Shown: piece by piece, positions 9,660 through 41,237 of the stretch | How the letters are laid out: the number at the start of each line of letters is the position of its first letter | Numbering within the stretch: the first letter of the stretch is position 1 | NCBI GenBank assembly: GCA_963715985.1 | Contig: CAVQSP010000012.1 | Location: forward strand, 837 to 64,836 | DNA length: 64,000 bases | Direction of reading: 5' to 3' | DNA from: an uncultured Thermoleophilia bacterium | GTDB lineage: Bacteria; Actinomycetota; Thermoleophilia; UBA2241 | Notes under the pieces: model-generated | Database searches by the model: none | Told to the model about the DNA's origin: nothing | What the model saw: only the letters and a program-made list of their open reading frames with translations | Position numbers and translations under genes: made by a program

Positions 9660-11033
9660 TCACACGGAGCAGTAGGCCGCCAGCTGCCGCCGCGTGACCT
9701 CGTCCAGCGGCGGCTGCTCGTACGTCTCCAGCAGCTCCGCGACACGGTCGGCGGCGGCGGTCAGGACGGTGTCGGCGCCGGCGCCGAGTGCGCTGTCGTA
9801 GCTCTGCCTCGCGAACACGGACGGCTTGGCGCCTCCCTGCCTGTGCGTGCGCGTGTGCCGCTGCGAGAGGTACATGCCGCCGGGTCCCACCTTCTCGATG
9901 ACGTCGAGCGCGAGTGACTCGGGACCCAGGTCGATCTGCCAGGGGCGGGACCGCAGGGCGCCGATGAGCTCGTCGTCGACGACGAGCTTCTCCCAGCTGA
10001 GCGCGTTGTAGGCGCTCAGCACGCCCATGCCCTGGAACAGGAAGTCGACCTCGCGCTCCAGCACAAGCGCGACGCCGAGCGCGCTCTCGATGCCCGCCTG
10101 CAGGTCGGGCAGATGAGCGTCGGTGATGGCCCCACCGGCGCGCACGGGGAGCCCGAGCCAGTGCCCGAGCTCGACGGTGGCCGCCGCGAGGCCCCAGAAG
10201 GTGGGATCGCCGGCCAGCATGCCGCCGGTCCGCATCGAGCCCGCGGACGCGACTCCGCCGTAGATGATCGGGCAGCCGGGACTGAGCAGCTGGGCGAGGA
10301 CGACGCCGGCCAGGGCTTCAGCGTGCTGCAGCACCAGCAGTCCGCCCGCCGTCACCGGGCCGCTGACGCCACCGATCGGGATTGCCATCACCCACAGCGG
10401 CTGTCCCAGCAGCGCCATCTCCTCCACGGCCCGGCAGGTGTCGGCGTCGAAGCGCAACGGCGACATGGAGGTGAAGCCGTAAAGGAAGCGCGGCCGCTCG
10501 TGCCAGGAGGCGCCGTAGAGGATCTCGCTGGTGTCCCGGAAGACGCGGCGCTGCATCTCCGTGAACGCGGGGTACTCGAAGGGCTTGTCGGTCAGTGTGA
10601 GGTACTCGTACACGCTTCTGCGGTACTCCGTCGGGTCGTCCATGTCGGGGAAGTAGAGGCCGTAGCCGACCATGTCGACGTTCTCGAGGCGATGACAGAG
10701 CCGCGCGTACTTGGCGATGTCGGCCAGGTCAGGCGGCCGCAGCTCGCCGCCCTCGGCGACGAACGTGGGCCCGGAGGCGCTGGCGACCACGGTGTGGCCG
10801 CGGCCGAACACCAAGGACCTCGCGGCCTCACGGGCCACGAGCTCGAAGGAGCGCGGCGCCGTGGCGAGCGCCTCGGCCACCTGGTCCTCGGTCATGAAGA
10901 CGCGCTCGCCGTAGGTGCCGAAGCCCGCGGCGCGGAAGCGGCGCACGACGTCCTCGGACTCGAAGACGACGCCGGTGCTCCCGAGCACGTGCAGGCCCGC
11001 CTCGTGGATGCGGCGCAGCTCGTCGGTCGTCAT
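9660..11033 (-). CDS. MttB-superfamily methyltransferase, paralog 2 (short class, intact)
   Basis: ORF 9660..11198. The likely start is ATG 11033 (MTTDELRRIHEAGLHVLGSTGVVFE..). It is collinear with paralog 3 (..LSPGCPIIYGG..AGDPTFW..GLPVRAGGAITDAHLPDLQAG..VLSAYNALSWEKLVVDDELIG..GPGGMYLSQRHTRTH). There is no internal stop. Confidence 0.85.
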   Translation of the reverse strand: MTTDELRRIHEAGLHVLGSTGVVFESEDVVRRFRAAGFGTYGERVFMTEDQVAEALATAPRSFELVAREAARSLVFGRGHTVVASASGPTFVAEGGELRPPDLADIAKYARLCHRLENVDMVGYGLYFPDMDDPTEYRRSVYEYLTLTDKPFEYPAFTEMQRRVFRDTSEILYGASWHERPRFLYGFTSMSPLRFDADTCRAVEEMALLGQPLWVMAIPIGGVSGPVTAGGLLVLQHAEALAGVVLAQLLSPGCPIIYGGVASAGSMRTGGMLAGDPTFWGLAAATVELGHWLGLPVRAGGAITDAHLPDLQAGIESALGVALVLEREVDFLFQGMGVLSAYNALSWEKLVVDDELIGALRSRPWQIDLGPESLALDVIEKVGPGGMYLSQRHTRTHRQGGAKPSVFARQSYDSALGAGADTVLTAAADRVAELLETYEQPPLDEVTRRQLAAYCSV

Positions 11034-11073
11034 CGCGGTCCTCCGCTTCGCGTGACCGGCGGGCAGCCGGGTC

Positions 11074-11320
11074 TCACGCGTCCCGGCCGGCGACTGCCCG
11101 CGCGTCCTGCAACCGGAGCGAGACGGCGGCGGCGAAGTCGCGCACGTCCCGGACCTCCTCGAAGGCCCAGATCGCGCCGGCCACTTCGTCGAGGGCATCG
11201 GGACCGAGGAGGTGGCGCAGTAACCAGCGGAACCTCTTCTCCATGCGGGCGCAGGACGTTGCTGCGCAGCGACTCACAGAGGTGATCGCCGAGTTCTCTC
11301 CTGATCTGGTCGTCGGTCAT
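11074..11320 (-). CDS. Small hypothetical protein (about 80 aa) between MttB paralogs 3 and 2, with an apparent frame change
   Basis: MTDDQIRRELGDHLCESLRSNVLR.. (11030..11617 frame, ATG 11320) continues in the 11074..11277 frame (..EKRFRWLLRHLLGPDALDEVAGAIWAFEEVRDVRDFAAAVSLRL..). No family was recognised. It is preceded by a lower-GC 226-nt spacer. Confidence 0.3.
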
Positions 11321-11342
11321 GGTCGCACCCCCAGTGCTGGGC

Positions 11343-11369
11343 AACCGATCGGTCGCCAGAACCGATCGG
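11343..11369. promoter_or_regulatory. Two direct copies of AACCGATCGG (each containing the palindrome CCGATCGG) 17 bp apart; operator-like site
   Basis: Read directly: aaccgatcgg tcgccag aaccgatcgg. It lies 25-50 nt upstream of the small ORF start (minus strand), inside the only sizeable spacer in the MttB run. Confidence 0.25.
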
Positions 11370-11546
11370 CATGGGTCCTCTGTGCGCGGCAGTGTGGCAC
11401 GCAATGGAAGCCATTCAAGGAACCTGCCGTCGAGGTCCAGCATATGGGACCCCAAGTGCCGCTCTTCTGGAGGTGCATCGCTCGGTGCCCGCGACGCAGT
11501 GGTGGTGGACCGGGCTGGGGGCGGCGGGCGAAGCGGAGCCGGCCGG

Positions 11547-12926
11547 TCACGCCAGGCAGTAGGCGTCGAGCTGCCGGCGGACCATCGCGTCCAGGTCGTC
11601 CGGCGGCTCGTACGCATCCAGGCGGCGGGCGACTTCCGCGGCGGCGGCGGCGCGCAGGTCCTCGCCGCCGCCGGCCAGCCACTTCTCGAGCGCGTCGCGC
11701 ACGAGGATGGTGGGCCGGAGGTGGTCGCGCGCGTGGCGGCGCGTGTGTGCCTGCCCCAGGTAGCTGCCGGCCGGGCCGACCGCCGCGATGATGTCCTCGG
11801 CCAGCGCCTCGGCGTCGGTCGCGGCCGGGGCGGCTGCGGCGCGCAGCGTGGTGATCAGCTCGTCGTCCATCACGAGCTTCTCCAGAGACGTGACGTTGTA
11901 CGAGCTGAGCACGCCGGCGCCCTGCATGATGAAGTCGGCGCCGGCGCGCATCCCGGCGGCGAGACTCAGCGCCGACTCGAGCATGGCCTGAGCGTCGGGC
12001 ACGTGCGCGTCGGTGACGGCGGCGCCGGCGCGCACCGGCAGTCCGCAGTGGCGCGCCAGCAGCACCGAGGCCTCGGCCATGCCGGCGAACTCCGCCGTGC
12101 CGAAGGTCGCCATGCCGGTGCGCAGGTCCGACATCGTGGAGAGGCCGCCGTACATGAACGGGCTCCCCTCGGCGGCGGCCTGGGCCAGCACCAGCGACGC
12201 CAGCACCTCGGCGTGCTGGACGACGAGCGTGCCGGCCGGCGTGGCGGGTCCGGTGGTGCCGCCCATCACGCAGGCCGTGACACAGCTCGGCTGGCCGAGG
12301 CGCGCCCAGCGCAGCAGCAGGCGCGCCGTCTCGCCGACGATCTGCAGGGGCGAGGTCGTGTTGAGGATGATGAAGGCGCGCGGCCGGCTCGCCCAGTCCG
12401 CGCCGAAGAGGATCTCGTTGATCGCCACCGCGTCGTCGAGGTCCTCGTCCACGCTGGCGATCCACTCGGTGCTCTTGTCGCTCAGCGTCAGCCGGGCGTG
12501 CGTCGTGCGCCGCGTGCGCACGTCCTCCGGCAGGTCGAGCGGTTCGACGGCGTCGCCCTGGAAGTCGACGGCGGCCGAGACGTGAGCGAGCCGGGCCACA
12601 TCGGCGGCGTCTGCCAGACGGCCGGGTCTTACGACGTCGCCGTCGAGCACGAAGGCCGGCCCGGAGACGGTGCCGATCACCGTCCGCCCCTCGCCGAACG
12701 TCAGGTCTCGCGCGGGCGAGCGGCCCTCGAGGACGAACGTCGAGGGCGCGGCGGCCAGCGCCGCCTGCACCGCGCCCTCGCCGATCCACACGCGCCGGCC
12801 GTCGGCCCGCGCGCCGCGCGCGACCAGGAGCGCGACGGCCTCGTCGTCCTGGACGAGCACGCCGGTGCTCTCCAGCACGCGCAGCGCCGCCGCGTGGATG
12901 GCTTCGATGTCGGCGACCGAGAACAC
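11547..12926 (-). CDS. MttB-superfamily methyltransferase, paralog 3 (short class, intact)
   Basis: Intact 459-aa ORF MFSVADIEAIHAAALRVLESTGVLVQDDEAV...GPAGSYLGQAHTRRHARDHLRPTILVRDALEKW.. It has family-wide collinearity with the other paralogs. Confidence 0.9.
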   Translation of the reverse strand: MFSVADIEAIHAAALRVLESTGVLVQDDEAVALLVARGARADGRRVWIGEGAVQAALAAAPSTFVLEGRSPARDLTFGEGRTVIGTVSGPAFVLDGDVVRPGRLADAADVARLAHVSAAVDFQGDAVEPLDLPEDVRTRRTTHARLTLSDKSTEWIASVDEDLDDAVAINEILFGADWASRPRAFIILNTTSPLQIVGETARLLLRWARLGQPSCVTACVMGGTTGPATPAGTLVVQHAEVLASLVLAQAAAEGSPFMYGGLSTMSDLRTGMATFGTAEFAGMAEASVLLARHCGLPVRAGAAVTDAHVPDAQAMLESALSLAAGMRAGADFIMQGAGVLSSYNVTSLEKLVMDDELITTLRAAAAPAATDAEALAEDIIAAVGPAGSYLGQAHTRRHARDHLRPTILVRDALEKWLAGGGEDLRAAAAAEVARRLDAYEPPDDLDAMVRRQLDAYCLA

Positions 12927-12983
12927 GTCGCTCAGGCCGTCGCCGGCGAGCGGCTCACCGACGCGCCGGCCACGCGGCCTCCC

Positions 12984-14441
12984 TCACGCCTCGGGCCGAA
13001 GCCGTCGACGACGGCGTCGATGCGCGCCGCCACCTCTGCTGGCAGCGGCGCCGGCTCGTGCTCGGCGAGGATCTTCAGGGCTTTGCGGCGGGCCTTCTCG
13101 GCGAGGTCGAGCCCGCCCTCCTCCTGCCAGCGCACGTGGCCCTCGCGGTTGATGATGGTGGGGCGCCACTGGGCGGAGCGTACGTGGCGCTTGGTGTGCT
13201 TGGCGGAGAGGAAGTCGCCGCCGGGGCCGACCTGGCGCGACGACGTCCACGGCCAGCGTCTCCTCGCTCACCTCGACGCCGGCGAAGAGGCGGCGGTTGA
13301 GGGAGATGAACTCGTCCATCATCACGATCAGCTCGAGCGAGGCGGTCATGCCGAAGTCCATGTAGCCCGAGGTCGTGGTTGAGGTTGGAGCCCGTGGCGA
13401 GGCTGAGGAACGTCGCCTCGCCGCCCTCCATGCCGGCCTGCGCGTCGACGACCTGGGCGTCGGTCGTGCCGGCGTAGCCCCAGTTGGGCAGGTCCATCCA
13501 GCGCGCCAGCTCCGTCATGCACACGTAGCCGATGTAGTACTCGGGTGCGTTGTAGGCCGATTGCATGGTCGCCATGTCGAGCACGGCGGGGCCGATGCCG
13601 TAGATGAACGGCGCGCCCGGAGCTGCGCAGCTGGTGCACCACCAGGCCGAGCAGCGACTCGGCGGTGCCCAGGGCGATGTGCCCGGCCGCGGTGATGGGC
13701 GCCGTGCCGCCCGCGAGCGGCGCCGTGGAGTACACGCACGGGATGCCCTTGTCGGCGCAGAAGAGGAGCTTGGCGAGCGCCTCCGCGGGGTGCCGCAGCG
13801 CGCTCGTGGGCTCGCCGTACATGATGAAGTACGGCTTGGCGCGGAGCTCCGCCTCCCCGCCGCGCAGCTCCCCGGCGATCTGCCACATCGCGGCCAGGTC
13901 GCGCTCGTTCTCGGCCACCACGACGGGCGGCTTCGTGGTGTTCATCACCATGGCGCGGAAGCTCTCCAGCAGCGCCACGTGCGGGTCACGGTCGCCCGGG
14001 TGCGCGTAGCTCATCACGAAGTCGACGTTGGGCAGGGCGTCGCACCAGACGCGCCGCCATCACGCCGTCGGCGAGCACGGTGGGGCGGTGCTCGCCGGTC
14101 TCGAGGTCCCAGACGTTCGTCACCGCCGAGCCATTGCCGAAGTACGCGTTGTAGCGGCCCAGCGACATCGCGGGCTCGCCGGCTCTGTCGTAGACCTCGA
14201 CCACCGGCGGCGCCGTGGCGCGGGTCTTCTCGACCAGTTCGCGGGGCACGCGCACGAGGTTGTCGCCCTCCACCTCGCAGCCGGCGCGCGCAGCAGCTCG
14301 ACCGCCTGCGGCGTCGTGCACGCGCTGGCCCACGGTGGCCATGATCTCGAGGGCGGCGTCGTAGATGGCCGCCTTCTGCCGTCCGTCAGGTACGAGAGAT
14401 GCCCGGGGTAGTCCGGACTGAGAGCGGTAGGGAGCGGGCAT
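12984..14441 (-). pseudogene. MttB-superfamily methyltransferase, paralog 4 (long class), about 6 frame changes
   Basis: Collinear pieces: 13986..14441 (..AAIYDAALEIMATVGQRVHDAA..YFGNGSAVTNVWDLETGEHRP); 13346..14017 (MMSYAHPGDRDPH..NTTKPP..LRAKPYFIMYGEPTSAL..APITAAGH); 13075..13584 (LDMATMQSAYNAPEYYIGYVCMTELARWMDLPNWGYAGT..GSNLNHDLG); 12984..13361 (DFGMTASLELIVMMDEFISLNRRLFAGVEV); and 12932..13135 (RWQEEGGLDLAEKARRKALKIL..). The probable stop is at 12984. Confidence 0.8.
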
Positions 14442-14444
14442 GTG

Positions 14445-15899
14445 TCAGGCCTCCGGGGTGTAGTCGTCCACGAGCGCGTCGATGCGCGCCGCCACCTCTG
14501 CGGGCAGCGGCGCCGGCTCGTGCTCGGCGAGGATCTTCAGGGCTTTGCGGCGGGCCTTCTCGGCGAGGTCGAGCCCGCCCTCCTCCTGCCAGCGCACGTG
14601 GCCCTCGCGGTTGATGATCGTGGGGCGCCACTGGGCGGAGCGTACGTGGCGCTTGGTGTGCTTGGCGGAGAGGAAGTCGCCGCCGGGGCCGACCTGGCGG
14701 ACGACGTCGACGGCGAGCGTCTCCTCGCTCACCTCGACGCCGGCGAAGAGGCGGCGGTTGAGGGACACGTACTCGTCGACGATGACGATGAGCTCCAGCG
14801 AGGCCGTGAGCCCGAAGTCCAGGTAGCCCACGTCGTGGTTGAGGTTGGAGCCGGCGGCCATACAAAGTAAGGCGAGTTCCGCGATCTCCATCCCGGCCTG
14901 CGCGTCCACGAGCTGCGAGTCCGAGGTGCCGCCGTAGCCCCAGTTGGGCAGGTCGAGCCAGCGCGCCATCTCGATCTGGCAGAGGAAGTCATGAGGTACT
15001 CGGGCGCGTTGTAGGAGCTCTGCGAGGTGGCCATGTCGAGCACGGCGGGGCCGATGCCGAAGAGGAAGGGCGCCCCGGGCCGGTGCAGCTGGTGGATGAC
15101 GAGCCCGAACAGCGACTCGGCCACGCCCTGGCAGGTGTGCCCGGCCACGGTGATGGGCGCCGTGCCGCCGGCCAGCGGCGCCGGCGAGTAGATCGCCGGG
15201 ATGCCCTTGTCGGCGCAGAACAGCAGCTTGGCGATGCTCTCCACCGGGTGGCTGAGCGGGCTCACGGGCTCCAGGTACATGGTGAAGTACGGCTTGGCCC
15301 GCAACTCCTCCTCGCCGCCGCGCAGCTCGCAGGCCACGCGCCACATCACCTCGAGGTCGCCGGCGTGCTCGGAGGTCATCACCATGGGCTTGGTGGTGTT
15401 GCTCGCCATGGCACGGAAGCTCTCGAGGTAGCGAGCGGTGCGGCTCCACGTCGTCGGGGTGGGCGAACGACATCACGAAGTCGATGTTGGGCAGGCGTCG
15501 CAGAGACGCGCGGCGCGCCCCACGTCGGCGATGGTGCTCAGGCGGTGCTCGCCGGTCTCGAGGTCGTAGGTGCTGATGAGGTCCGAGCCGGTGCCGAAGT
15601 AGCTGTTGGTCCCGCCCAGCGACATCGCCGGCTCGCCCTCGCGACTGAAGACCTCCACGACGGGCGGCGCCGTGGCGCGCGCCTCTTCGACCAGCGCACG
15701 CGGGATGCGCACCAGGTGGTCGTCCTGCACCTCGCAGCCCGCGCCGCGCAGCAGCTCGCGGGCCGCCTCGTGGTGCACGCGCATGCCCACGCTCTCGATG
15801 ATCTCGAGTGCGGCCTCGTAGATGGCCGTCTTGTCGGCCTCGGTGAGATACGTCAGGCGGCCTGCGCGCGGCCGGGGCTCAGGAGTCAGCGGTCGGCAC
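14445..15899 (-). pseudogene. MttB-superfamily methyltransferase, paralog 5 (long class, tandem to paralog 4), about 4 frame changes
   Basis: GTG 15899 lies 5 nt after GGGAGGAGG. Pieces are in frames 15473..16114 (GRLTYLTEADKTAIYEAALEIIESVGMRVHHEAA..YFGTGSDLISTYDLETGEHR), 14729..15409 (ASNTTKPMVMTSEHAGDLEVMW..APITVAGHTCQGVAESLFGLVIHQL..YNAPEY) and 14445..15476 (MMSFAHPDDVEPH / ..FLCQIEMARWLDLPNWGYGGTSDS..GPGGDFLSAKHTKRH..YTPEA*). Confidence 0.8.
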
Positions 15900-15971
15900 G
15901 GTGGCCTCCTCCCGTCACGACGGTCTGCTCGTCTGGTCGCGGCCGCCCGCGTCGCGGCCACGGCGGCTGAG

Positions 15972-17507
15972 TCACAGGCTGCGGACGATGGCGGCGAAGT
16001 CGCCGGCGGCCACAGCCGCGGCCGCGGCCTCCAGCTCCGGCGCCAGGTAGCGGTCGCGACCGAGCGTCGGCGCGAAGCGCCGCACGAGGTCGCGTCCGGC
16101 TTTGGTCCCGACACCGGCCTCGAGCGGCGCCAGCAGGTCGATGGCCTGCGCCGCGCACAGCGCCTCTATGCCCAGCACGGTCTGCGCGTTGCGCAGCACG
16201 TCGAGCAGCTTGAGCGCCGCCGTCATGCCCATGCTCACATGGTCTTCCTGGTCGCCGGAACTGGGGATGGAATCCACGCTGGCAGGGTGGCACAGCACCT
16301 TGTTCTCGGACACGAGGGCCGCGGCGGTGTACTGGGCGATCATGTAGCCGTTGTTGAGCCCGCTGTCCCTGGTGAGGAACGGCGGCAGCTCGGAGAGCGA
16401 GCTGGTGAGCATGCGGAACGTGCGCCGCTCGCTGATGCTGGCGATCTCGCTCACCGCCATGGCCGCGAGGTCGAGCGCCAGGGCGAGCGGCTCCCCGTGG
16501 AAGTTGCCGGCGGAGATGATCTCGCCGCTGTCGGGGAACACGAGCGGGTTGTCGGTGACGGCGTCCACCTCGACGGCGATGACCTCGCGCAGCCAGCGCA
16601 GGGCGTCGCGGCAGGCGCCGTGCACCTGCGGGATGCAGCGCAGCGAGTAGGCGTCCTGCACCTTGTCGCAGTTGAGGTGGCTGAGCATGATGGCGCTGCC
16701 CTCGGTGGCGGCGCGCACGTGGCCGGCCGTCTGCAGCTGGCCGGGGATGGGGCGCAGCGCCTGGATGCGCTCCTGGAAGGGACCCACAGAGGCGCGCAGG
16801 CCTTCCAGGCTCATCGCGCCGATCAGGTCCGCCGAGTCCAGCAGCGCCTCGCCGTCGGCCACCGCCAGGCAGCCGATGGCGGCCATGAACTGCGTGCCGT
16901 TGAGCAGGCTCAGGCCTTCCTTGGCCTCGGGGACGAGGGGCGCGAGCCCTGCCGCCCGCAAGGCGGGCGCGGACGGCTCGCGCCGCCCGTCATGACTGAG
17001 CAGCTCGCCCTCGCCCATCATCGCCAGCACGAGGTGCGCGGACGGGGCGAGATCGCCGGAGGCGCCCAGCGAGCCCCGCGACGGCACCCACGGCACGATG
17101 TCGGCGTTGAGCATGTCGGCGACCATCTGCGCGACCGAGGCGCGCACGCCGGAGTGACCGCGGGCCATGGTGTTCAGGCGGATGACCATGGCGGCGCGCA
17201 CGGCGTCACGAGCCAGCGGCGCGCCGACGCCCACGGCGTGGCTGCGCACCAGGTTCTCCTGCAGCTCCTTCACCTTGCCGGCCGGGATGTGCGTGGTGGC
17301 CAGCAGGCCGAAGCCGGTGGTGACGCCGTACGCCACCTGCTCCTCCGCGATGACCCGGGCGATGACCTCGTGAGCGGCGGCGATGCGGTCCAGCGCGGCC
17401 CGGCCGAGGGAGACCTCGGCGCCGCCGCGCGCCACCGCCACCACCTGGTCGATGGTGAGCGGCGCGTCCCCGATCACGACGGGCGGCGGCGCGGACGTCC
17501 CGTTCAC
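15972..17507 (-). CDS. hutH: Histidine ammonia-lyase
   Basis: Intact 511-aa ORF with the MIO-forming triad in SLGASGDLAPSAH, plus GVTTGFG, NLVRSHAVGVG and DQEDHVSMG. The GTG start overlaps the sucD stop (GTGA). Confidence 0.9.
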   Translation of the reverse strand: MNGTSAPPPVVIGDAPLTIDQVVAVARGGAEVSLGRAALDRIAAAHEVIARVIAEEQVAYGVTTGFGLLATTHIPAGKVKELQENLVRSHAVGVGAPLARDAVRAAMVIRLNTMARGHSGVRASVAQMVADMLNADIVPWVPSRGSLGASGDLAPSAHLVLAMMGEGELLSHDGRREPSAPALRAAGLAPLVPEAKEGLSLLNGTQFMAAIGCLAVADGEALLDSADLIGAMSLEGLRASVGPFQERIQALRPIPGQLQTAGHVRAATEGSAIMLSHLNCDKVQDAYSLRCIPQVHGACRDALRWLREVIAVEVDAVTDNPLVFPDSGEIISAGNFHGEPLALALDLAAMAVSEIASISERRTFRMLTSSLSELPPFLTRDSGLNNGYMIAQYTAAALVSENKVLCHPASVDSIPSSGDQEDHVSMGMTAALKLLDVLRNAQTVLGIEALCAAQAIDLLAPLEAGVGTKAGRDLVRRFAPTLGRDRYLAPELEAAAAAVAAGDFAAIVRSL

Positions 17508-18388: not shown

Positions 18389-19569
18389 CAGTCGCCTCCC
18401 CCGGTCGTGGTGGCGGCAGGCAGGTCGCCGCGGGCCGCCGCGACCGCGAGCTCGACGGCCTCGGCCGCGCTGCCGGCGACGGTGACGCCGGCCAGCCCCG
18501 CCTCGGCGAGCACGGAGCGGCCGTCGGCGGCCGCCGTGCCGTCCAGGCGGACGATGACCGGCACGTCCACCTTGCTCTCGCCGAACACCTGCACGAGCCC
18601 GCGCGCGACCTCGTCGCAGCGGGTGATGCCACCGAAGATGCTCACGAGCACGGCGGCCACGTGGCCGCCGGCGAGGATGACCTCGAGGGCGTCGGCCACG
18701 ACCTTGGCACGGGCGCCGCCGCCGATGTCGCAGAAGTCCGCGGCGGCGCCTCCGGCCGCGGCGATCTGGTCGATGGTGCTCATCACGAGTCCGGCGCCGT
18801 TGCCCAGCACGCCGATGTCGCCGTCCAGCTCGACGAACGCGAGCCCGGCCCTGTGGGCCTTCGCCTCGCGTGCATCCGCCGACGCCTCGGCCAGGGCGGC
18901 GAAGTCCGGGTGCCGGAACAGCGCGCTGTCGTCGACGGTGACCTTGCTGTCCAGGCACACCACCACGCCGTCCTGGGTGAGGGCGAGCGGGTTGATCTCG
19001 ATCAGCGTGGCATCGCTCTCGAGATAGAGACTCCAGGCGGCGCGCACGGTGGCGTCCAGGGCACGGCCGGCGTAGGACTTGCGCGGCAGGCCGGCGGCCG
19101 CCAGCACGTCGCGGACCTGGTAGTCGCAGAGGCCCAGCAGCGGATCCACCGGCCGGCGCACGATGGCCGAGGGGTCGCGATGGGCGAGGTCTTCGATGTC
19201 CACACCGCCCTCGCGCGCGAACACGAGCACAGGGCCGCGGGCGGCGCGGGACAGCGCGATGGAGAGGTACATCTCCCGCGCGATGTCCGCGGCCTCCTCC
19301 ACGAGCACGGCCTCGACCGGCTTGTCCTTGATGGTCATGGCGAGGATCTCGGCGGCCGCAGCCTCCACCTCGTCGCGAGTCTGGCACAGGCGTACGCCGC
19401 CGGCCTTGCCGCGGCCGCCCGTCTTGACCTGCGCCTTGACGACGGCGGGGAGGCCGAGGCGGCGGGTGGCCTCGACGGCCTCCGCCGGCGTGACGGCCAC
19501 CGCGCTGGCCAGCACGGGCAGCCCGGCGGCCGCGAACAGCTTCTTGCCCTGATGCTCAAGCAGGTCCAC
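18388..19569 (-). CDS. sucC: Succinyl-CoA synthetase beta subunit
   Basis: Intact 393-aa ORF MDLLEHQGKKLFAAAGLPV..VVKAQVKTGGRGKAGGV..NGAGLVMSTIDQI..ANFCDIGGGA-like (ADFCDIGGGA). Confidence 0.9.
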   Translation of the reverse strand: MDLLEHQGKKLFAAAGLPVLASAVAVTPAEAVEATRRLGLPAVVKAQVKTGGRGKAGGVRLCQTRDEVEAAAAEILAMTIKDKPVEAVLVEEAADIAREMYLSIALSRAARGPVLVFAREGGVDIEDLAHRDPSAIVRRPVDPLLGLCDYQVRDVLAAAGLPRKSYAGRALDATVRAAWSLYLESDATLIEINPLALTQDGVVVCLDSKVTVDDSALFRHPDFAALAEASADAREAKAHRAGLAFVELDGDIGVLGNGAGLVMSTIDQIAAAGGAAADFCDIGGGARAKVVADALEVILAGGHVAAVLVSIFGGITRCDEVARGLVQVFGESKVDVPVIVRLDGTAAADGRSVLAEAGLAGVTVAGSAAEAVELAVAAARGDLPAATTTGGGD

Positions 19570-19572
19570 GGG

Positions 19573-20133
19573 CTACGCCTCCAAGGCGAGCCGCCGCCCA
19601 AGGCGGAACGCTTCGCGGTTGAGCTCGCGGAACTTCTCCGGCACGCGGCTCAGCACGGCGTGCTCGACCGCGTCCGCCGGCAGAAAGCCGGCGGACTCCA
19701 CGAGCGCGCCGAGCGCCACGATATTGGTGACCACCTTCTTCTTGAGCTCCTCGGCGGCGGCACGCGTGAACGGCGCCCCGCACAGGGTCCAGCGCTCGCT
19801 CTCCGGCCCCAGCTCGATGAGGTCGGAGTCGTAGACCAGCAGCCCGCCGGGACGCATGTCCATGACGTAGGCGCGGTAGGCGCCGGGCGCCAGGCAGAGG
19901 TTCACGTCCGGCGAGAGCACCTCGGGGAAGTCGATCTCCTCGTCGGAGATGATGACCTCGCTCTTGGAGGCCCCGCCGCGCGCGGCGGGGCCGTAGCTCT
20001 GCGTCTGCACCACCTGCTTGCCGAGGTCGGTGGCCGCCTCGGCGACGATGGCGGCGGCCAGCAGGATGCCCTGGCCGCCGGCCCCGGAGAAGCGGATCTC
20101 GGCACGCACGGTGAGGTCGCGGGCCTCAGCCAT
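19573..20133 (-). CDS. 2-oxoacid:ferredoxin oxidoreductase gamma subunit
   Basis: Intact 186-aa ORF with IRFSGAGGQGILLAAAIVAEAA..QSYGPAARGGASKSEVIIS, typical of OFOR gamma subunits. A preference for 2-oxoglutarate is only inferred from the adjacent sucCD. Confidence 0.85.
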   Translation of the reverse strand: MAEARDLTVRAEIRFSGAGGQGILLAAAIVAEAATDLGKQVVQTQSYGPAARGGASKSEVIISDEEIDFPEVLSPDVNLCLAPGAYRAYVMDMRPGGLLVYDSDLIELGPESERWTLCGAPFTRAAAEELKKKVVTNIVALGALVESAGFLPADAVEHAVLSRVPEKFRELNREAFRLGRRLALEA

Positions 20134-21037
20134 CCTTGCCTCCTCTGGCAGCGGCCTGGCTCTGCGCCTTCTCGGCCACCTCGGCCAGCGCCGTGACGAA
20201 CTCCTTGCGCTCGGCGTGGTGGATGAGACCCACGGGGTACTGGTCGTGCGTACGCGACTCGCCCTCCTCGAACTTGCTCGCCGGCACGGAGCGCTCCTTC
20301 TGCACCTTGAGGAACTCGGCCGGGTCCGGCGTGAGGTTGAAGCGCCCGTAGTAGACGGGGCACACGGCCATCGCCTCGACCATGGAGAAGCCCTTGTGGG
20401 CGATGCCGCCGGCGATGACGTCCACCAGCTGGCGGTAGCCCCAGGCGGTGCCGCGGGCCACGTAGGTGGCCCCCGCGGCGTGCGCCAGCTCGCAGAGGTC
20501 GAAGGCCGGCTCCACGTTGCCGTACACGCTGGTCGTGGACTTGTCGCCGGTGTGCGTGGTGGGGCTCATCTGCCCGCCGGTCATGCCGTAGATGGAGTTG
20601 TTGAAGACGAGCGCCGTCACGTCGATGTTGCGGCGCGCCGCGTGGATGAAGTGGTTGCCGCCGATGGCGGAGGAGTCGCCGTCGCCCATGGCGACGATGA
20701 CGTGCAGCGAGGGGTCGGCGGTCTTGGCGCCGGTGGCCACCGCGAGGGCGCGGCCGTGGGCCGTGTGCACGGTGGAGAACTCGAGGTACTGGGCGATGCG
20801 GCCGCTGCAGCCGATGCCGGCGACCACCACGACCTTCTCCGGGTCCAGGCCGAGGCCGAGGATGGCGTCCACGAGCGCCCGCGTGATGGTGCCGTTGGAG
20901 CACCCCGGGCACCAGATGGTCCGCGTGGTGCGCAGCCACGGGACGATCTCGCTGGTGGTGTGCAGCTTGATGCGCGGCAGCTTGTAGTCGGCCTGAGGCG
21001 TCGACTCCAGGCTTTGTTCGTCGACGAGGGCGGTCAT
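20126..21037 (-). CDS. 2-oxoacid:ferredoxin oxidoreductase beta (TPP-binding) subunit
   Basis: The 303-aa C-terminal part of ORF 20126..22549 from MTALVDEQS. It has WCPGCSNG, GIGCSGR and the TPP motif GDGDSSAIGGNHFIHAARRNIDVTALVFNNSIYGMTGGQ. The ATG overlaps the alpha-subunit stop (ATGA). Confidence 0.9.
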   Translation of the reverse strand: MTALVDEQSLESTPQADYKLPRIKLHTTSEIVPWLRTTRTIWCPGCSNGTITRALVDAILGLGLDPEKVVVVAGIGCSGRIAQYLEFSTVHTAHGRALAVATGAKTADPSLHVIVAMGDGDSSAIGGNHFIHAARRNIDVTALVFNNSIYGMTGGQMSPTTHTGDKSTTSVYGNVEPAFDLCELAHAAGATYVARGTAWGYRQLVDVIAGGIAHKGFSMVEAMAVCPVYYGRFNLTPDPAEFLKVQKERSVPASKFEEGESRTHDQYPVGLIHHAERKEFVTALAEVAEKAQSQAAARGGKDG

Positions 21038-22198
21038 GACGCCTCCCAGTCCTGGTAGTAGAACTCGGCTTTGACGAGCTCCTCGATCTCCGCCGGGGTG
21101 ATGAGCTTGCCGTCCACGCGGCCGTAGTCGACGACCTTGCAGCGCCCGCCCACAGCCGCCTGCACCTCCCAGCTCATCTGCTTGATGTTCATCTCCGGCA
21201 CGATGACGGTACGCACCTGCTCGGCCATGCGCTCCACCGACCTCGTGGGGAACGGCCACAGCGTGATGGGCCGCACCATGCCGAGGCGCACGCCCTGGGC
21301 GCGCGCCCACTTGACCACGGCGCGCGCCGAGCGCGCCACGCTGCCGTAGGCGAAGATGGCCACGTCGGCGTCGTGCATCATGTAGTTCTCCACGCGCACG
21401 ATGGCGTCGCGGTGGTGGTAGATCTTCTCGCGCAGGTAGCTGCCCAGGTCGCTGGCCACCTCCGGGTCGCCGGTCTCGGGGGCGCCGCTGCGGCGGTTGT
21501 AGACGAGGCCGGTGACGTGCACGCGGAAGGGCGATCCCAGCGGCGGCCGCGGGAGGATGTTGTCGAGGTCGCTCATCACGGTGTCGTACTCGTCGGGCTC
21601 GCAGTCCGGGCAGGCCGCGCGTGGCGATGCGCAGGGCGCCCGGCTCGGGCAGCACGACGGCCTCGCGCATGTGGCCCACGAGCGCGTCGGAGAGGATGAT
21701 GACCGGGGTGCGGTACTGCTCGGCCAGGTTGAAGGCCTCCACAGTGAGCGTGTAGCACTCGAGCACGCTGCTGGGCACGAGGGCGATCACGGAGTGTTCG
21801 CCGTGCGTGCCCCAGCGGGCCTGCATGACGTCGCCCTGGGCGGGCTCCGTGGGCAGGCCCGTGGAGGGCCCGCCGCGCATCACGTCGACGATGACGCAGG
21901 GGATCTGCGCCATGGTCGCGAAGCCGATCATCTCCTGCATCAGGCTGAAGCCCGGGCCGGAGGTGGCGGTGAGCGCCTTGGCGCCGGCCAGGCTGGCCCC
22001 GCACACGGCGGCGATGGAGGCGATCTCGTCCTCCATCTGGATGAACCTGCCGCCCACCTCGGGCAGCCGCCGGGCCAGGCGCTCGGCGATCTCCGTGGAC
22101 GGCGTGATGGGGTAGCCGGCGAAGAAGCGGGCGCCGGCGGCGATGGCTCCCTCGGCGACCGCCTCGTTGCCCTGCAGCAGGATCGGTGTGCCGGCCAT
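21034..22198 (-). pseudogene. 2-oxoacid:ferredoxin oxidoreductase alpha subunit, 1 frame change
   Basis: MAGTPILLQGNEAVAEGAIAAGARFFAGYPITPSTEI..TSGPGFSLMQE..DVMRGGPSTGLPT (22549 frame) joins ORF 21034..21579 (..VHVTGLVYN..VAIFAYGSVARSARAVVKWARAQGVRLGMVRPITLWPFP..). The shift is near 21600. RBS GAGGAGAA lies upstream of ATG 22198. Confidence 0.85.
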
Positions 22199-22199
22199 G

Positions 22200-22545
22200 T
22201 CAGTTCTCCTCGTGACGGTGGGCGCAGGCCTCGTCATCGGGGCCCTGCGGCGGCGGCCTTGGCTTGCGGCGCCTTGAGCGCCGCGTAGACGCGCTCGGCG
22301 TGGGCCTCGTGCCGACTCGTCCGCCTCCTGCTCGCCCTTCTTCTCGCGGCGCCGCACCTCGATGGCGAAGTCCGGGCAGTGCAGCTCGCAGAGCAGGCAC
22401 AGGGTGCAGTCGTCCGGGCGCGCGAGGATGGGCTCACCCATGTCGGTCTCGTCGAACACGTGCTGCGGGCACAGCTCGATGCAGATGCCGCAGGCCTTGC
22501 AGAGGCTGATGTCGAGCGCGAGGGGCGGCGCCTGTTGCTCGGTGT

Positions 22546-22549
<4 letters not shown>
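22200..22549 (-). CDS. 2-oxoacid:ferredoxin oxidoreductase delta subunit (2x[4Fe-4S] ferredoxin); 3' end uncertain
   Basis: [52 protein letters not shown] carries two CxxCxxCxxxCP motifs. After about 75 aa all frames become Arg/Ala-rich and there is no in-frame stop before the alpha start. Candidate stops in other frames are at 22234 and 22200, so an indel probably hides the true end. Confidence 0.7.
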
Positions 22550-24219
<1,670 letters not shown>

Positions 24220-24542
24220 AGTGCCGCCTCGCTTCGCGGAGTTGGTTTCGGCATGCGGTCGCCCGCATTCATATGCTCACCCAGACTCACCCCGCGCCCG
24301 CGCGCCTTCAACCCGAGGGGCAGTGTGTCCAGCGAGCTGGACGCGTTTTCCCTCCCGCACACGGGACTCGTCCGCGATTCTGGACGAGACGGGGATGCCG
24401 GGAGCGCTCGAGCGTCATTCCCGCGACCGGCTTGAGCAGTGTCCGAGTGACGAGTTCAAGCAACGACACCGTTGGAAGTGCCGTTGCTTGAAAGGCCTGT
24501 CTCATAGGTCCTGCCAGGCGCCGCCCGCGAGAGCCGCCGGCA

Positions 24543-24586
<44 letters not shown>

Positions 24587-24608
24587 GGACCATGCCGGGA
24601 ACGAGTCC

Positions 24609-24641
24609 GGCCCGCGAGCGCCGGTGCGGGGCTCGCGGGCC
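24609..24641 (-). terminator. Strong GC hairpin (11-bp perfect stem) 25 nt downstream of the corrinoid-protein stop; a terminator, attenuator or processing site
   Basis: GGCCCGCGAGC-(11 nt)-GCTCGCGGGCC. No U-tract follows on the minus-strand transcript, so the function is uncertain. Confidence 0.35.
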
Positions 24642-24665
24642 GAATGAAGAGGGACGGCTGTCTCG

Positions 24666-25289
24666 TCAGGCCACCAGGCTCTTGCAGAGCACGACGGCGC
24701 CCGGTGCGTCCGAGGCGTACCCATCGGCCTGGATCTCGTCGGCGTAGGCCTGCGTGAGCGGCGCGCCGCCGACGATGGCCTTGGCCGCCACGCCGGCCTC
24801 GTGCATGGCCTCCACGGTCCTGCGCATCTGCGGCATGGTCGTGACGAGCAGCGCCGACATGCCGACCACGTCGGCCTCGTGCTCGGTGGCGGCGGCCACG
24901 AAGGCCTCCGGCGCCACGTCGTTGCCCAGGTCCACGACGTTGAAGCCGGCGCCCTCGAGCATCAGCACCACGAGGTTCTTGCCGATGTCGTGCAGGTCGC
25001 CTTTGACGGCGCCGATCACCACGGTGCCCTTGCCGCCGCTCACACCCTCGACAAGCAGGGGCTTCAGCAGGGCCAGGCCCTCCTGCATGGCCTCGGCGGA
25101 CACCAGCATCTCGGGGATGAAGAGGTCGCCTTTGGCGAACATGGCGCCGACCTCGTCCATGGCCGGGATGAGGCCGTTGTCCAGGATGTCTGCGGCCGAT
25201 ACGCCTTCGTCCAGGTGCTGCTGCACGAGGCGGGGGGCCTCGTCGACGTCGCCCTCGATCACTGCCTTCTGCAATTCGTCAAACGCCAT
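24666..25289 (-). CDS. Cobalamin-binding corrinoid protein (MttC/MtbC/MtgC-like)
   Basis: Intact 207-aa ORF. It has an N-terminal four-helix cap region, then the B12-binding motifs DxHxxG (GDLHDIGKN), SxL (GMSALL) and GG (VGGAP). Confidence 0.9.
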   Translation of the reverse strand: MAFDELQKAVIEGDVDEAPRLVQQHLDEGVSAADILDNGLIPAMDEVGAMFAKGDLFIPEMLVSAEAMQEGLALLKPLLVEGVSGGKGTVVIGAVKGDLHDIGKNLVVLMLEGAGFNVVDLGNDVAPEAFVAAATEHEADVVGMSALLVTTMPQMRRTVEAMHEAGVAAKAIVGGAPLTQAYADEIQADGYASDAPGAVVLCKSLVA

Positions 25290-25334
25290 CGTTCCTCCAG
25301 AGTGTCACGGCTGAATGCCGGGGGGTTCCGGCGC

Positions 25335-26777
25335 TCAGCCGGCCAGCGCCTTGTCGGCGGCCTTCACGACGTTGTCCATGTCGCGCTTGACGTCGTCGGG
25401 CAGCGCCAGGGGCCGGAGGTCCTTCTTCAGCTCCCTGTAGAGCTCGGTGGCGCGGGTGTGCAGGTCCTTGCGGCCCGCGGCGACCCAGTTGTCCAGCACG
25501 TCCGGCACGAAGAGGTCGGGGCGGATCATCTCGCGGCAGTGGCGCAGCGTGTGCTTGCGGCGCAGGTAGTGACCGCCGGCGCCGGCATCGATGATGTCCT
25601 CCACAGCCAGGGTCTCGTCGTCCACCTGGACGCCGGCCACGGTGCGCTGGATGACGGCGAGCAGGCGGTCGTCGATGACCAGCTCCACCGGGCTCGCGAG
25701 CGTGGAGCCGCCGAGGCGGCCGGCGCCGTACAGGATGTCCGCGCCGGCCATCGCCAGCACCGCCGGCTGCAGCGTCTTCTCGGAGGCCGTCTGGCCGTCC
25801 GGCAGGTACGAGTCGGCCATCATCGAGAAGGTCTCCACCGGCACCTTCCAGGCCTCCTTGCAGAACTGGGCCGTGGCGGCGCGCGTGAGGATCGTCTCGC
25901 TGCTGGCCAGCAGCGCGTTGCCGGTGCCCAGGTCCATCGTCGTGTTGAACACGGTGGCGATGAACGGCAGCCCCGGCTTGAACAGCTGCGACATGACGAG
26001 GAAGGCGAGCAGCTCCACGGCCTCGAGCAGCACGGTGCCGGCGATGGTGCCGGGCGCGGTGGCGCCGAGCACGGGCAGCGAGTTGGCGGCCACGGGGATG
26101 TCGTACTCGGCCGCGCCGGCGAGCTGCGCCATGTCCATGTCCTTGAACACCAGCGGGCTCAGGGACGTCGGGTTGATGAGGAGGAGCGGGCGCTTGCGGA
26201 GCTCGTCGGCGCCGCCCGCGCGGGCGAGCATGAGGTCGAAGAGGTACGGCACGCTCTCGTAGCAGTACGCGAGCAGCATGAGCGGCTTGGACGTGTTCTG
26301 CAGCTGCACGTTGAGGCCGTGGACGTCCGCGGTCTCCATGGGCGCGTCCATGGGCGTCTGGATGGCGCAGACGTCGATGTTGGGCAGCACCTCGACGAGC
26401 TGGCACCACTCGGCGAAGCGCTCGTGCGTGTTGTCCACGTAGTCGCCGACGTCGGGGTCCAGGTAGCGCATCGTCTGCACGCACGTGGTGGAGTAGAAGC
26501 GCCCGGACGGGTCCGGGACGGTGAAGTCGTGCTTCTCGTCGCCGCCCTTCACGGTCACCGAGGAAGGCACGCTCCTGAGGGCGGCCTCGATGGTCGCGGC
26601 GGGGAACTTGACCATGCGCGTCTCGTGGTCGACCTCGGCCCCGGCTGCGGCGAGCCGGCCCAGCGACTCCTCGTGGTCGACCTTCACGCCGTAGGTCGAC
26701 AGGATGTGGACGGCTTTCTCGTGGATCGAGGCGACGTCCTCCGCCTCGAGCAGCTGCACCCGCAAGGTCTTGGCCAT
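25335..26777 (-). CDS. MttB-superfamily methyltransferase, paralog 6 (third, divergent class; intact)
   Basis: Intact 480-aa ORF MAKTLRVQLLEAEDVASIHEKAVHILSTYGVKVDHEE..AGGHYLRRKHTLRH.. It shares family collinearity with the other six copies but is clearly divergent from them. It lies 45 nt upstream of the corrinoid protein. Confidence 0.88.
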   Translation of the reverse strand: MAKTLRVQLLEAEDVASIHEKAVHILSTYGVKVDHEESLGRLAAAGAEVDHETRMVKFPAATIEAALRSVPSSVTVKGGDEKHDFTVPDPSGRFYSTTCVQTMRYLDPDVGDYVDNTHERFAEWCQLVEVLPNIDVCAIQTPMDAPMETADVHGLNVQLQNTSKPLMLLAYCYESVPYLFDLMLARAGGADELRKRPLLLINPTSLSPLVFKDMDMAQLAGAAEYDIPVAANSLPVLGATAPGTIAGTVLLEAVELLAFLVMSQLFKPGLPFIATVFNTTMDLGTGNALLASSETILTRAATAQFCKEAWKVPVETFSMMADSYLPDGQTASEKTLQPAVLAMAGADILYGAGRLGGSTLASPVELVIDDRLLAVIQRTVAGVQVDDETLAVEDIIDAGAGGHYLRRKHTLRHCREMIRPDLFVPDVLDNWVAAGRKDLHTRATELYRELKKDLRPLALPDDVKRDMDNVVKAADKALAG

Positions 26778-27867: not shown

Positions 27868-28179
27868 GTACGTGTCCGTCACCTGGCTCCCGTGCTCCGC
27901 GGGGACCGGCTGCGGCGACGACCCGCAAGGGCGCGCGCGTGGTCCCGATTGCACAGCATGAAAGCAGCGGCGCCGGGCACGCGCAAGGCCCGCGGGCGCC
28001 GCGTCTTGGATGCTGGACGGTGTACGAGCGGCGGCCGGCAGGCCGCCGTCCTGGGAGCGCACTTTGCAGCGCGCCGCCGCGCCCGCTATCCTGAGCCGCA
28101 CGTGGCCCTTGGAGCGGTGCGTCTCGCGAGCCGCCACGAGGGCCGGCCGTGAGCCGTCGCGCGCGAGGGAGTCCCAGAC

Positions 28180-38270: not shown

Positions 38271-38273
38271 GAC

Positions 38274-41006: not shown

Positions 41007-41065
41007 GGGGTGTGCTCCTGACTCGTCCTGGTCCGCCGCGCCGGCTCCGGCGCCGGCAAGCGGAC

Positions 41066-41100
41066 GGCGCCGGCACGCTGGGGGCGAGCGTGCCGGCGCC
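41066..41100 (-). terminator. Perfect 14-bp GC hairpin downstream of the SAM-methyltransferase gene
   Basis: GGCGCCGGCACGCT-(7 nt)-AGCGTGCCGGCGCC. It lies about 140 nt after the stop at 41238 and upstream of the MttB7 start. There is no U-tract. Confidence 0.4.
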
Positions 41101-41237
41101 TGTCGCTGACTGCGGCGGCTGTCATGTGCCCGACACGAGCATCCGCGCCGCCGCGGCGATCACGGTTCCACGACGCCGGCGCGCGAGTGACATCGCCAGT
41201 AACACGGCTCCGATTCTGTAGCGCGCCCGCCCGCGGG

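Follow-up and report, generated by a model that had tools for sequence, protein, structure and literature searches.

An MttB-superfamily methyltransferase gene and its corrinoid partner precede a hutU-kor-sucCD-hutH operon in an uncultured Thermoleophilia bacterium

Gene content of the locus

We analysed a 64-kb stretch of DNA of about 70% G+C, hereafter called the window, from an uncultured soil or sediment actinobacterium (Thermoleophilia, Actinomycetota). The region under study, positions 9660-26777 on the minus strand, combines genes for methyltransferases of the MttB superfamily and a corrinoid protein with genes of histidine utilization (hut), a 2-oxoacid:ferredoxin oxidoreductase (OFOR, korDABG) and a succinate-CoA ligase (sucCD) (Table 1). 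Gene identities were assigned with Pfam and NCBIfam profiles, applying the equivalog cut-offs. The order laid out in the initial annotation, from MttB6 through the corrinoid gene, hutU, korDABG, sucCD and hutH to MttB5, MttB4, MttB3, a small open reading frame (ORF) and MttB2, is present as described, and the profiles agreed with every gene that it named. Seven junctions that it listed were all exact on direct reading, as was the length of 446 nucleotides (nt) given for a structured spacer between the corrinoid gene and hutU.

Table 1. Positions, strands and assignments of the features of the locus and of further MttB genes, in window coordinates
Feature	Position	Strand	Assignment	Basis or remark
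MttB1	3..767	-	MttB7-type	Cut by window edge; after enolase-superfamily gene
MttB2	9660..11033	-	MtgB-like, Arg kept	PF06253, 289 bits; 43% identical to MttB3
Small ORF	11050..11320	-		No Pfam match; inside the 513-nt lower-GC MttB3-MttB2 gap
MttB3	11547..12926	-	MtgB-like, carboxylate-binding Arg kept	PF06253, 345 bits
MttB4	12932..14441	-	MttB7-type subfamily	Full length after correction of four 1-nt indels
MttB5	14445..15899	-	MttB7-type subfamily	Full length after correction of two 1-nt indels
hutH	15972..17507	-	Canonical histidine ammonia-lyase of the 4-methylideneimidazole-5-one (MIO) type, GSLGASGDL	TIGR01225, 655.6 bits (cut-off 539.15)
sucD	17504..18388	-	Succinate-CoA ligase, alpha subunit	CoA_binding and Ligase_CoA
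sucC	18388..19569	-	ADP-forming succinate-CoA ligase, beta subunit	NF001913 equivalog, 428.9 bits (cut-off 370)
korG	19573..20133	-	OFOR gamma subunit	PF01558 POR
korB	20126..21037	-	OFOR beta subunit, binding thiamine pyrophosphate	TPP_enzyme_C
korA	21034..22198	-	OFOR alpha subunit	POR_N in one frame, PFOR_II in another
korD	~22200..22549	-	OFOR delta subunit, ferredoxin-like	Fer4 domains; frameshifted tail
hutU	22546..24219	-	Canonical urocanate hydratase	TIGR01228, 964.1 bits (cut-off 375)
Corrinoid-hutU spacer	24220..24665	-	446 nt	Hairpin, tandem repeat and inverted repeat
Corrinoid protein	24666..25289	-	Cognate corrinoid protein	Pfam B12-binding_2 cap and B12-binding; DxHxxG present as DLHDIG
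MttB6	25335..26777	-	Non-pyrrolysine MttB-superfamily methyltransferase, 'Glu/Met' subfamily	PF06253, 226.8 bits
IclR1	26995..27900	-	IclR-family regulator directly upstream of MttB6	HTH_IclR and IclR_C; kept in relatives
IclR2	28153..29049	+	IclR-family regulator, divergent from the locus	Pfam HTH_IclR and IclR_C
MttB7	39552..41159	-		PF06253, 270 bits

The genes from hutU through hutH form a translationally coupled core, in which neighbouring genes overlap or lie 1-3 nt apart. The stop of hutU and the start of korD share ATGA at 22546-22549, and korA and korB share ATGA at 21034-21037, both read directly; korB and korG overlap by 8 nt (ATGGCTGA), korG and sucC are 3 nt apart, sucC and sucD have one nucleotide in common (TGATG), and sucD and hutH share GTGA at 17504-17507. 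The OFOR contains its four domains in the order delta-alpha-beta-gamma, and its best matches are 2-oxoglutarate enzymes, all under the curated cut-offs (for KorB, the 2-oxoglutarate:ferredoxin oxidoreductase beta model with 268.7 bits against 364; for the KorD of a relative, 59 bits against 125). HutU was rejected as a thiourocanate or S-methyl-thiourocanate hydratase, as it scored 707-744 bits on those models, below both cut-offs, versus 964 on the hutU model. HutH was rejected as a MIO-less ergothionase or hercynine lyase, given its Ala-Ser-Gly (ASG) motif and a score above the hutH cut-off.

Upstream of the core, MttB6 and the corrinoid gene are separated by 45 nt containing a GGAGGA ribosome-binding site. 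The corrinoid protein matched MtgC-like and pyl_corrinoid-like NCBIfam models, all under their cut-offs. MttB6 is preceded by the two IclR regulators and then by an ABC importer of the peptide/opine type (SBP_bac_5), and the order of SBP_bac_5 importer, divergent IclR, IclR, MttB6 and corrinoid gene is also kept in relatives, the position of IclR2 being conserved in L010, L082-L084, L087-L089, L091, L092 and L096 (L numbers denote the loci compared).

The 446-nt spacer folds better than its shuffled versions (z = -4.2). A GC-rich hairpin with 14 bp at 24609-24641 directly follows the corrinoid stop codon, a (GACACCGGC)n tandem repeat starts at 24580, and a 34-nt inverted repeat at 24457-24490 on the minus strand (CAAGCAACGGCACTTCCAACGGTGTCGTTGCTTG; perfect 14-bp stem, 6-nt loop) lies about 240 nt before hutU, where the spacer is lower in GC. 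This inverted repeat, which could act as an operator or an RNA hairpin, was not seen in relatives, except possibly in L103, the only locus that also shares the last ~170 nt of the otherwise unconserved spacer. A gathering-threshold Rfam search of the whole window returned two tRNAs only and no riboswitch or known RNA in the spacer, and consensus promoter and terminator scans of this 70% G+C DNA gave nothing usable.

Downstream of hutH, the gaps are 72 nt (hutH-MttB5), 3 nt (MttB5-MttB4), 5 nt (MttB4-MttB3) and 513 nt (MttB3-MttB2). With MttB1 and MttB7, the window holds seven MttB genes of four subfamilies. MttB4 and MttB5 matched PF06253 as fragments and became full length after frameshift correction. 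On the pyrrolysine (Pyl)-type equivalog TIGR02369, the only NCBIfam subclass that the window MttBs matched, they scored 249-355 bits, under the cut-off of 525; no pyl genes were seen in the window, and MttB6 has no in-frame UAG.

Gene order in Thermoleophilia relatives

Window proteins were mapped onto 80 genome loci in a survey anchored on HutU. With one genome per species, 14 of these loci carried a HutU 81-93% identical to that of the window, and they belonged to Thermoleophilia, Actinomycetes or metagenome-assembled genomes (MAGs) of Actinomycetota. A scan of metagenome contigs anchored on MttB6 gave 26 further loci, which were pooled with the genome loci for counting spacers and gene orders.

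In every locus with sequence downstream of a corrinoid orthologue, the next gene on the same strand was hutU (21/21), at a distance of 23-394 nt in 20 of the 21, and MttB6 orthologues 74-99% identical to that of the window stood before this pair. Several relatives have spacers of only ~23-55 nt with a ribosome-binding site, which leave little space for a terminator and a promoter. The complete order hutU-korDABG-sucCD-hutH recurs in L002, L003, L004, L006, L007 and L091 and is partial in L008; sucCD is missing in L001, and L116 has hutU-kor-sucCD without hutH. Altogether kor follows hutU in nine loci. In L001-L004 and L006, hutH is followed by hutI (TIGR01224, 440 bits) and ftcD (TIGR02024, 325 bits), and in L001-L004, L006, L007 and L091 a conserved enolase-superfamily gene (MR_MLE; window 897-2012, minus strand) lies past the hut core; muconate cycloisomerase and galactonate dehydratase were its best matches in NCBIfam, both under cut-off. 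In L010 and L095, hutU is followed by a LarA-like racemase gene on the opposite strand, and nothing after hutU in L011 matched window proteins.

Where the relatives hold hutI-ftcD or the enolase-superfamily gene, the window holds MttB5-MttB4-MttB3-MttB2 and an Opp-like importer. As this array after hutH was found in none of the relatives, it is a lineage-specific insertion and lies outside any conserved 17-kb operon. The conservation of gene order that the initial annotation named as a test of its reading thus holds for MttB6-corrinoid-hutU and, in most close relatives, for hutU-korDABG-sucCD(-hutH), and fails for the array. Its reading of the region as a single 17-kb super-operon with all modules translationally coupled was not supported: gaps of 446, 72, 5 and 513 nt separate the modules, and a hairpin follows the corrinoid gene.

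The placement of korDABG and sucCD inside a hut operon is a new arrangement. As in classical hutHUI operons with hutG or ftcD, HutH (ASG) and HutU are canonical, and relatives add HutI and FtcD. Unlike in these operons, OFOR and succinyl-CoA synthetase genes lie between hutU and hutH, the regulator is IclR rather than HutC, and an MttB/corrinoid module stands in front. Likewise, the delta-alpha-beta-gamma order followed by an ADP-forming succinate-CoA ligase resembles OorDABC/KorDABG with SucCD, whereas those genes belong to a tricarboxylic acid cycle context and the subunits here score under the 2-oxoglutarate cut-offs. Through the hutU-kor-sucCD-hutH(-hutI-ftcD) cluster, a little-known class of actinobacteria would have a compact route for converting histidine to succinate, with gain of reduced ferredoxin and ATP.

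Other Thermoleophilia loci join MttB and hut genes in different orders. L115 reads M20 peptidase, MttB7-type, molybdenum (Mo) oxidoreductase, MttB, HutU paralogue, HutI, FTCD_C, FtcD and MttB6-like, and L087 is similar; L094 and L099 read hutH, MttB6-like, korD, korA. The MttB6-like paralogue of these arrangements is ~60% identical to MttB6. In L007, an MttB7-type gene directly precedes hutU.

MttB and hut genes beyond the clade

None of 66 more distant hutU loci (HutU 65-73% identical, from many phyla) had an MttB or corrinoid gene within 10 kb, so that the link belongs to particular MttB subfamilies. One of the 66 had a kor gene nearby: in a Peptococcaceae MAG (L027:10001-15962), hutU-ftcD-hutI is followed after ~1 kb by a korA 70% identical to that of the window, which places the hut-kor link outside Thermoleophilia as well, possibly by gene transfer.

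A protein search from MttB6 recovered a graded family of homologues, among them four of the MttB6 type with 52-55% identity on contigs of ~53% G+C (L107, L108, L113 and L114), whose named relatives are Deltaproteobacteria, Desulfobacterales and Thermodesulfobacteriota (Desulfobacterota) MAGs. Each of the four homologues closes a hut operon as its last gene, with the order FTCD_C-ftcD-hutI-hutH-hutU-MttB in L107, L113 and L114 and without hutU in L108. The HutH of these operons carries the normal ASG. Upstream of each operon lie a divergent GntR regulator and a second, divergent MttB, which is 37-42% identical to the MttB4/5/7 type and shares its Trp/His signature. Two more homologues, of 47% identity, adjoin a gene for a lyase resembling histidine ammonia-lyase (HAL) in L110 and L111. 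Two MttB subfamilies are thus found beside hut genes across two phyla and in no fewer than four gene orders, which is hard to explain without a shared function. A functional link between MttB and histidine catabolism, as put forward in the initial annotation, appears likely from this gene context, which includes the embedding of the MttB6 subfamily in hut operons of another phylum.

Several further genes were seen in this setting. A clade of urocanase paralogues, HutU2 (L087:1041-2852, L115:5497-7212, L107:7228-8964, L113:7261-8997 and L114:7279-8925), is 76-77% identical between the ~70% G+C Thermoleophilia and the ~53% G+C loci and 43-48% identical to canonical HutU. HutU2 scores equally on the urocanase and S-methyl-thiourocanate hydratase models, was always accompanied by MttB genes, HutI and FtcD in the loci examined, and may act on a substituted urocanate. 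An aldehyde:ferredoxin oxidoreductase (AFOR) adjoins MttB6-type genes in L107:12732-15193, L114:10524-12985 and L111:4861-6849, with a 4Fe-4S partner in two of them.

The window itself encodes a second HAL-like lyase (42187-43711, plus strand; frameshifted near 42530), in which Ala-Cys-Gly (ACG) replaces Ala-Ser-Gly at the MIO position. Every other HAL residue for substrate binding and catalysis is kept, although identity to the HutH of the window is only 38-39%. Cys can still form MIO. In L110 and L111, orthologues lie divergently beside MttB6-type and corrinoid genes, and in L007 one is close to hutU. Between MttB7 and this lyase lies a gene for an S-adenosylmethionine-dependent methyltransferase (41238-42539, minus strand), with Methyltransf_11 behind an N-terminal region of ~220 residues that has no Pfam match. 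In L007, the trio of lyase, methyltransferase and MttB7-type gene stands immediately upstream of hutU.

Active-site residues of the MttB paralogues

The window MttB paralogues were aligned with Desulfitobacterium hafniense MtgB and Methanosarcina barkeri MttB. In MtgB, MtcB, MtpB, MtyB and MthB, a conserved Arg (R312 in MtgB) binds the substrate through its acidic group (PMC13080624). At this position, Arg is present in MttB2 and MttB3, Glu in MttB6 and Trp in MttB4, MttB5 and MttB7; of 115 family members, 54 had Glu there, among them every hut-embedded one. The position of Pyl334 is occupied by Met in MttB6, Thr in MttB4, MttB5 and MttB7, Ile in MttB2 and Val in MttB3. Tyr97 of MtgB is present in no window paralogue, MttB2 and MttB3 having Ser or Thr there depending on the alignment, and these two carry Gln at H348 and Tyr at F356. 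For this set of positions MttB6 has Thr/Tyr/Ser, and MttB5 has His at H348. A P-V-E-T-F-S..M motif is common to the Thermoleophilia MttB6 orthologues and the hut-embedded homologues of ~53% G+C, and the Thermoleophilia paralogues have Leu and Trp at the motif positions. The signature of MttB7-type genes is L-P-x-W-G..HD. The alignment indicates that it is the hut-linked MttBs that depart, at the position for substrate binding, from all quaternary-amine members characterised so far.

The nearest solved structure to MttB6 is M. barkeri MttB (7xcl, 192 bits, versus 120 for MtgB), and that to MttB3 is MtgB (9yce/2qne, 238 bits). MttB6 resembles M. barkeri MttB/MttC in its ~31% identity, in keeping the equivalents of Thr111 and Tyr364, the latter being catalytically important in MttB (PMC9842639), and in the adjacent MttC-like corrinoid protein; it differs in having Met for Pyl334 and Glu for Tyr329. 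With the quaternary-amine systems MtgB/MtgC/MtgA of D. hafniense and MtpB/MtcB/MtyB/MthB with MtqC/MtqA/RamQ of Eubacterium limosum, the locus has in common the Pyl-less PF06253 TIM barrel, the two-domain corrinoid protein with DxHxxG and the R312 Arg of MttB2 and MttB3. Unlike in those systems, Glu or Trp replaces R312 in MttB6 and MttB4/5/7, the aromatic pair Y97/F356 is absent, and no tetrahydrofolate (THF) methyltransferase or RamA/RamQ activase is encoded nearby. A Hut partner is unreported for any member of those systems, and the host is a high-GC actinobacterium, not an acetogen, sulfate reducer or methanogen.

Proposed pathway and alternative explanations

The explanation that fits best, to which we give slightly better than even chances, is a real catabolic locus in which MttB6 and its corrinoid protein demethylate a histidine-family compound that feeds the Hut pathway. 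MttB6 would move a methyl group from an imported N-methylated compound of this family to the Co(I) corrinoid protein, and MttB4 and MttB5, both of the MttB7 type, would probably perform a like transfer. The demethylated skeleton would pass from histidine through urocanate, imidazolone propionate and formiminoglutamate to glutamate and formimino-THF. Glutamate would be converted to 2-oxoglutarate by a deaminating or transaminating enzyme encoded outside the operon, and 2-oxoglutarate to succinyl-CoA by Kor, with reduction of ferredoxin, and on to succinate and ATP by SucCD. This energy-yielding end of the route, already outlined in the initial annotation, is strengthened by the hutI-ftcD pair at the operon end of relatives. 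The methyl group would reach THF through a methyltransferase encoded elsewhere, for which Ruegeria offers a precedent (PMC12478193).

Candidate methyl donors would be N-pi- or N-tau-methylhistidine, free or from dipeptides, hercynine (N-alpha-trimethylhistidine) or its partly demethylated forms, and ovothiol-type compounds. Hercynine appears somewhat disfavoured, and a ring-N-methylated histidine at least as plausible. In the latter case, the methyl would come from a cation that has a good leaving group, the protonated methylimidazole, and histidine would result from one demethylation; that there are two isomers, N-pi and N-tau, would account for the pair of enzyme subfamilies, and the pocket Glu of MttB6 could hold the imidazolium. 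We know of no precedent for ring-N-demethylation in the MttB family. More tentatively, the MttB6-type (Glu/Met) and MttB7-type (Trp/His) enzymes might be a demethylase pair dedicated to methylated histidine-family compounds and feeding histidine fermentation, possibly by removing the ring N-pi and N-tau methyls from protonated methylimidazole, with HutU2 in the same pathway; we hold this elaboration to be possible though doubtful.

The MttB superfamily is large, and assigning substrates to its members from sequence is an open problem that bears on methane cycling and on trimethylamine (TMA) production in the gut. To our knowledge, only six compounds have been established as its substrates, namely TMA, glycine betaine, proline betaine, carnitine, gamma-butyrobetaine and phosphocholine. 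Methylated histidines, which include hercynine, ergothioneine, ovothiols and the 1- and 3-methylhistidine of anserine and proteins, have as far as we know only recently been seen as substrates of anaerobes, and so far only via lyases that release TMA. New at the locus are the gene combination and the two subfamilies of hut-linked MttBs, whose active sites are altered; the parts all belong to known families. A literature search found nothing that linked MttB to hutH or hercynine, or methylhistidine to a corrinoid methyltransferase. For these two uncharacterised subfamilies, the data supply a lead in the form of a genomic partner (Hut), an active-site signature and a cognate corrinoid protein. 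Ring-methyl removal by a dedicated enzyme pair would extend MttB-superfamily chemistry for the first time to a substrate outside both the betaine-type quaternary amines and the Pyl-activated compounds, and it would feed a fermentation that conserves energy by ferredoxin reduction and substrate-level phosphorylation. A demethylating, TMA-free route would be a new branch of methylated-histidine metabolism.

Several observations weigh against this explanation. hutI and ftcD are absent from the 64-kb window (tblastn), and no pterin-binding methyltransferase or RamA-type/RACo-domain activase was found in the ORFs scanned across it, both as the initial annotation had remarked; the methyltransferase and the activase may be encoded elsewhere, as in Ruegeria (PMC12478193). 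hutH is missing from the MttB6-corrinoid-hutU loci L010, L011, L095 and L116. No corrinoid gene lies within 9 kb in the ~53% G+C loci with hut and MttB, and two of the four MttB6-type homologues at 47-51% identity have no hut neighbours (L109, 51%; L112, 48%). The supporting contigs come mostly from close relatives (HutU 79-94% identical), so that part of the synteny may be inherited rather than selected. The spacer in the window, opening with a 14-bp GC hairpin, may separate corrinoid and hutU transcripts here. With the OFOR subunits under the 2-oxoglutarate-specific cut-offs, their 2-oxoglutarate specificity rests on the sucCD neighbours, and the identity of the MttB substrate rests entirely on inference.

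An unlikely alternative is that betaine or methylamine demethylation, peptide uptake and histidine fermentation are merely packed together in a catabolic island, sharing at most the one-carbon (C1) pool of THF (methyl-THF from MttB, formimino-THF from FtcD). The changing MttB content around the hut core among relatives would agree with this, as would the 446- and 513-nt gaps, the separate IclR regulators and transporter, the hut-free MttB6-type genes of L109 and L112, and the spread of seven MttBs, a formate-dehydrogenase-like Mo enzyme and two Opp-like importers across 41 kb. Yet two particular MttB subfamilies, which a generic C1 link would not select, recur beside hut genes across two phyla in at least four orders and in none of the 66 ordinary hutU loci, and hutU follows the corrinoid orthologue in 21 of 21 loci, often at less than 60 nt.

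A rival reading, closer to the initial annotation in its substrate, has the MttBs demethylate hercynine or ergothioneine-derived betaines stepwise to histidine for HutH and HutU. The characterised non-Pyl MttB members all use quaternary amines with an acidic group (PMC12155760, PMC13080624), a description that hercynine fits; seven MttB genes of four subfamilies would suffice for a series of steps, the Arg that binds the carboxylate is present in MttB2 and MttB3, and hercynine and its relatives are now known anaerobic substrates (bioRxiv 10.1101/2025.08.13.670108; 10.64898/2026.04.22.720169). However, the betaine-like MttB2 and MttB3 are not conserved at the locus, and the MttB6 and MttB7 types, linked to hut across phyla, have Glu or Trp instead of Arg. 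A single demethylation would give N,N-dimethylhistidine, whereas a MIO-type HutH is inferred to need a primary amine, and we know of no MttB member that removes a second or third methyl. The neighbouring importers are of the SBP_bac_5 (peptide/opine) or SBP_bac_3 (polar-amino-acid) and not of the OpuA/ProX betaine types, and L087 and L115 include an M20 peptidase. Hercynine, ergothioneine and N-pi-methyl-hercynine are catabolized via MIO-less trimethylammonia-lyases (bioRxiv 10.1101/2025.08.13.670108; 10.64898/2026.04.22.720169). Those enzymes (ergothionase, Shewanella woodyi HBTL and the N-pi-methyl-hercynine lyase SO_3299) resemble the proposed system in degrading methylated histidines to urocanate-type acids in oxygen-poor habitats, but they remove the whole trimethylammonium group and release TMA, while both window lyases carry ASG or ACG and the methyl would stay on the corrinoid. 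We therefore regard the hercynine version as quite improbable.

Another version, very improbable overall, keeps the lyase route and has a lyase split a histidine betaine into urocanate for HutU and TMA or dimethylamine for a Pyl-independent MttB6, whose Glu would hold the protonated amine. It draws on the closeness of MttB6 to M. barkeri MttB, with Tyr364 and Thr111 kept and no carboxylate-binding Arg, on hutU rather than hutH being the invariant neighbour of MttB6-corrinoid (hutH is lacking in L010, L011, L095 and L116), and on the ACG lyase of the window, whose orthologues adjoin MttB6-type genes in L110 and L111. It would need a Pyl-independent TMA methyltransferase, of which we know none; a MIO-less lyase of the ergothionase or HBTL type is absent, the ACG lyase retains every residue with which HAL binds histidine and catalyses its reaction, and the ~53% G+C operons have a normal ASG HutH.

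Single-base frameshifts

At least seven +1 or -1 frameshifts were found in the 17-kb region, in korD, korA, MttB4 and MttB5. korA has one extra base near 21625 relative to L001, L002, L004, L007 and L008. Comparison with relatives put the C-terminal tail of korD in another frame, with the shift at about 22300, and an apparent delta-alpha fusion was rejected as an artefact of this shift. MttB4 has four shifts, at about 13238, 13367, 13618 and 14044, and MttB5 two, near 14988-14990 and, at about 15885, five codons past its GTG start, which is preceded by a GGGAGGAGG ribosome-binding site. All breaks are clean: the alignment with intact homologues, at 66-81% identity, runs on across them without losing a residue, and no stop codon interrupts the frame. 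Like breaks affect genes for phosphoenolpyruvate carboxykinase (near 44340), an aminotransferase (45.5-46.5 kb), a class IV aminotransferase (near 35.2-35.7 kb), the Mo-oxidoreductase (35.9-37.9 kb), a pyridine-nucleotide oxidoreductase (near 39.0 kb), an ABC ATPase (near 7200) and the second lyase, giving roughly one frameshift per 4-5 kb across the window.

This density in unrelated genes suggests a long-read assembly with residual indels, and the split-gene pattern is repeated in a related long-read MAG (L003); together with the cleanness of the breaks, these findings lead us to read the frameshifts as most likely assembly indels. That the shifts are instead genuine and OFOR, MttB4 and MttB5 pseudogenes of a decaying locus in this strain is highly improbable. 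In favour of decay, at least seven shifts fall within 17 kb, four of them in MttB4 alone, and a nearly identical short-read contig (L081), which lacks indels in the genes that it covers, covers only genes intact in the window. The perfect continuity across single-base shifts, the like breaks in unrelated genes and the split genes of L003 all speak against decay.

Other genes of the window

Directly downstream of MttB7, at 35899-39558 on the minus strand, lie genes for a formate-dehydrogenase-like molybdopterin oxidoreductase, a 4Fe-4S protein and a GltD-like pyridine-nucleotide oxidoreductase, a trio that also occurs beside an Opp-like importer and hutU in L009 and possibly oxidises C1 units. 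A frameshifted phage-type integrase, a ParE toxin, a HepT-like RNase and a tRNA gene (62389-62460) occupy 59318-62460, a stretch that probably marks the border of an integrated mobile element with no bearing on the MttB-hut association.

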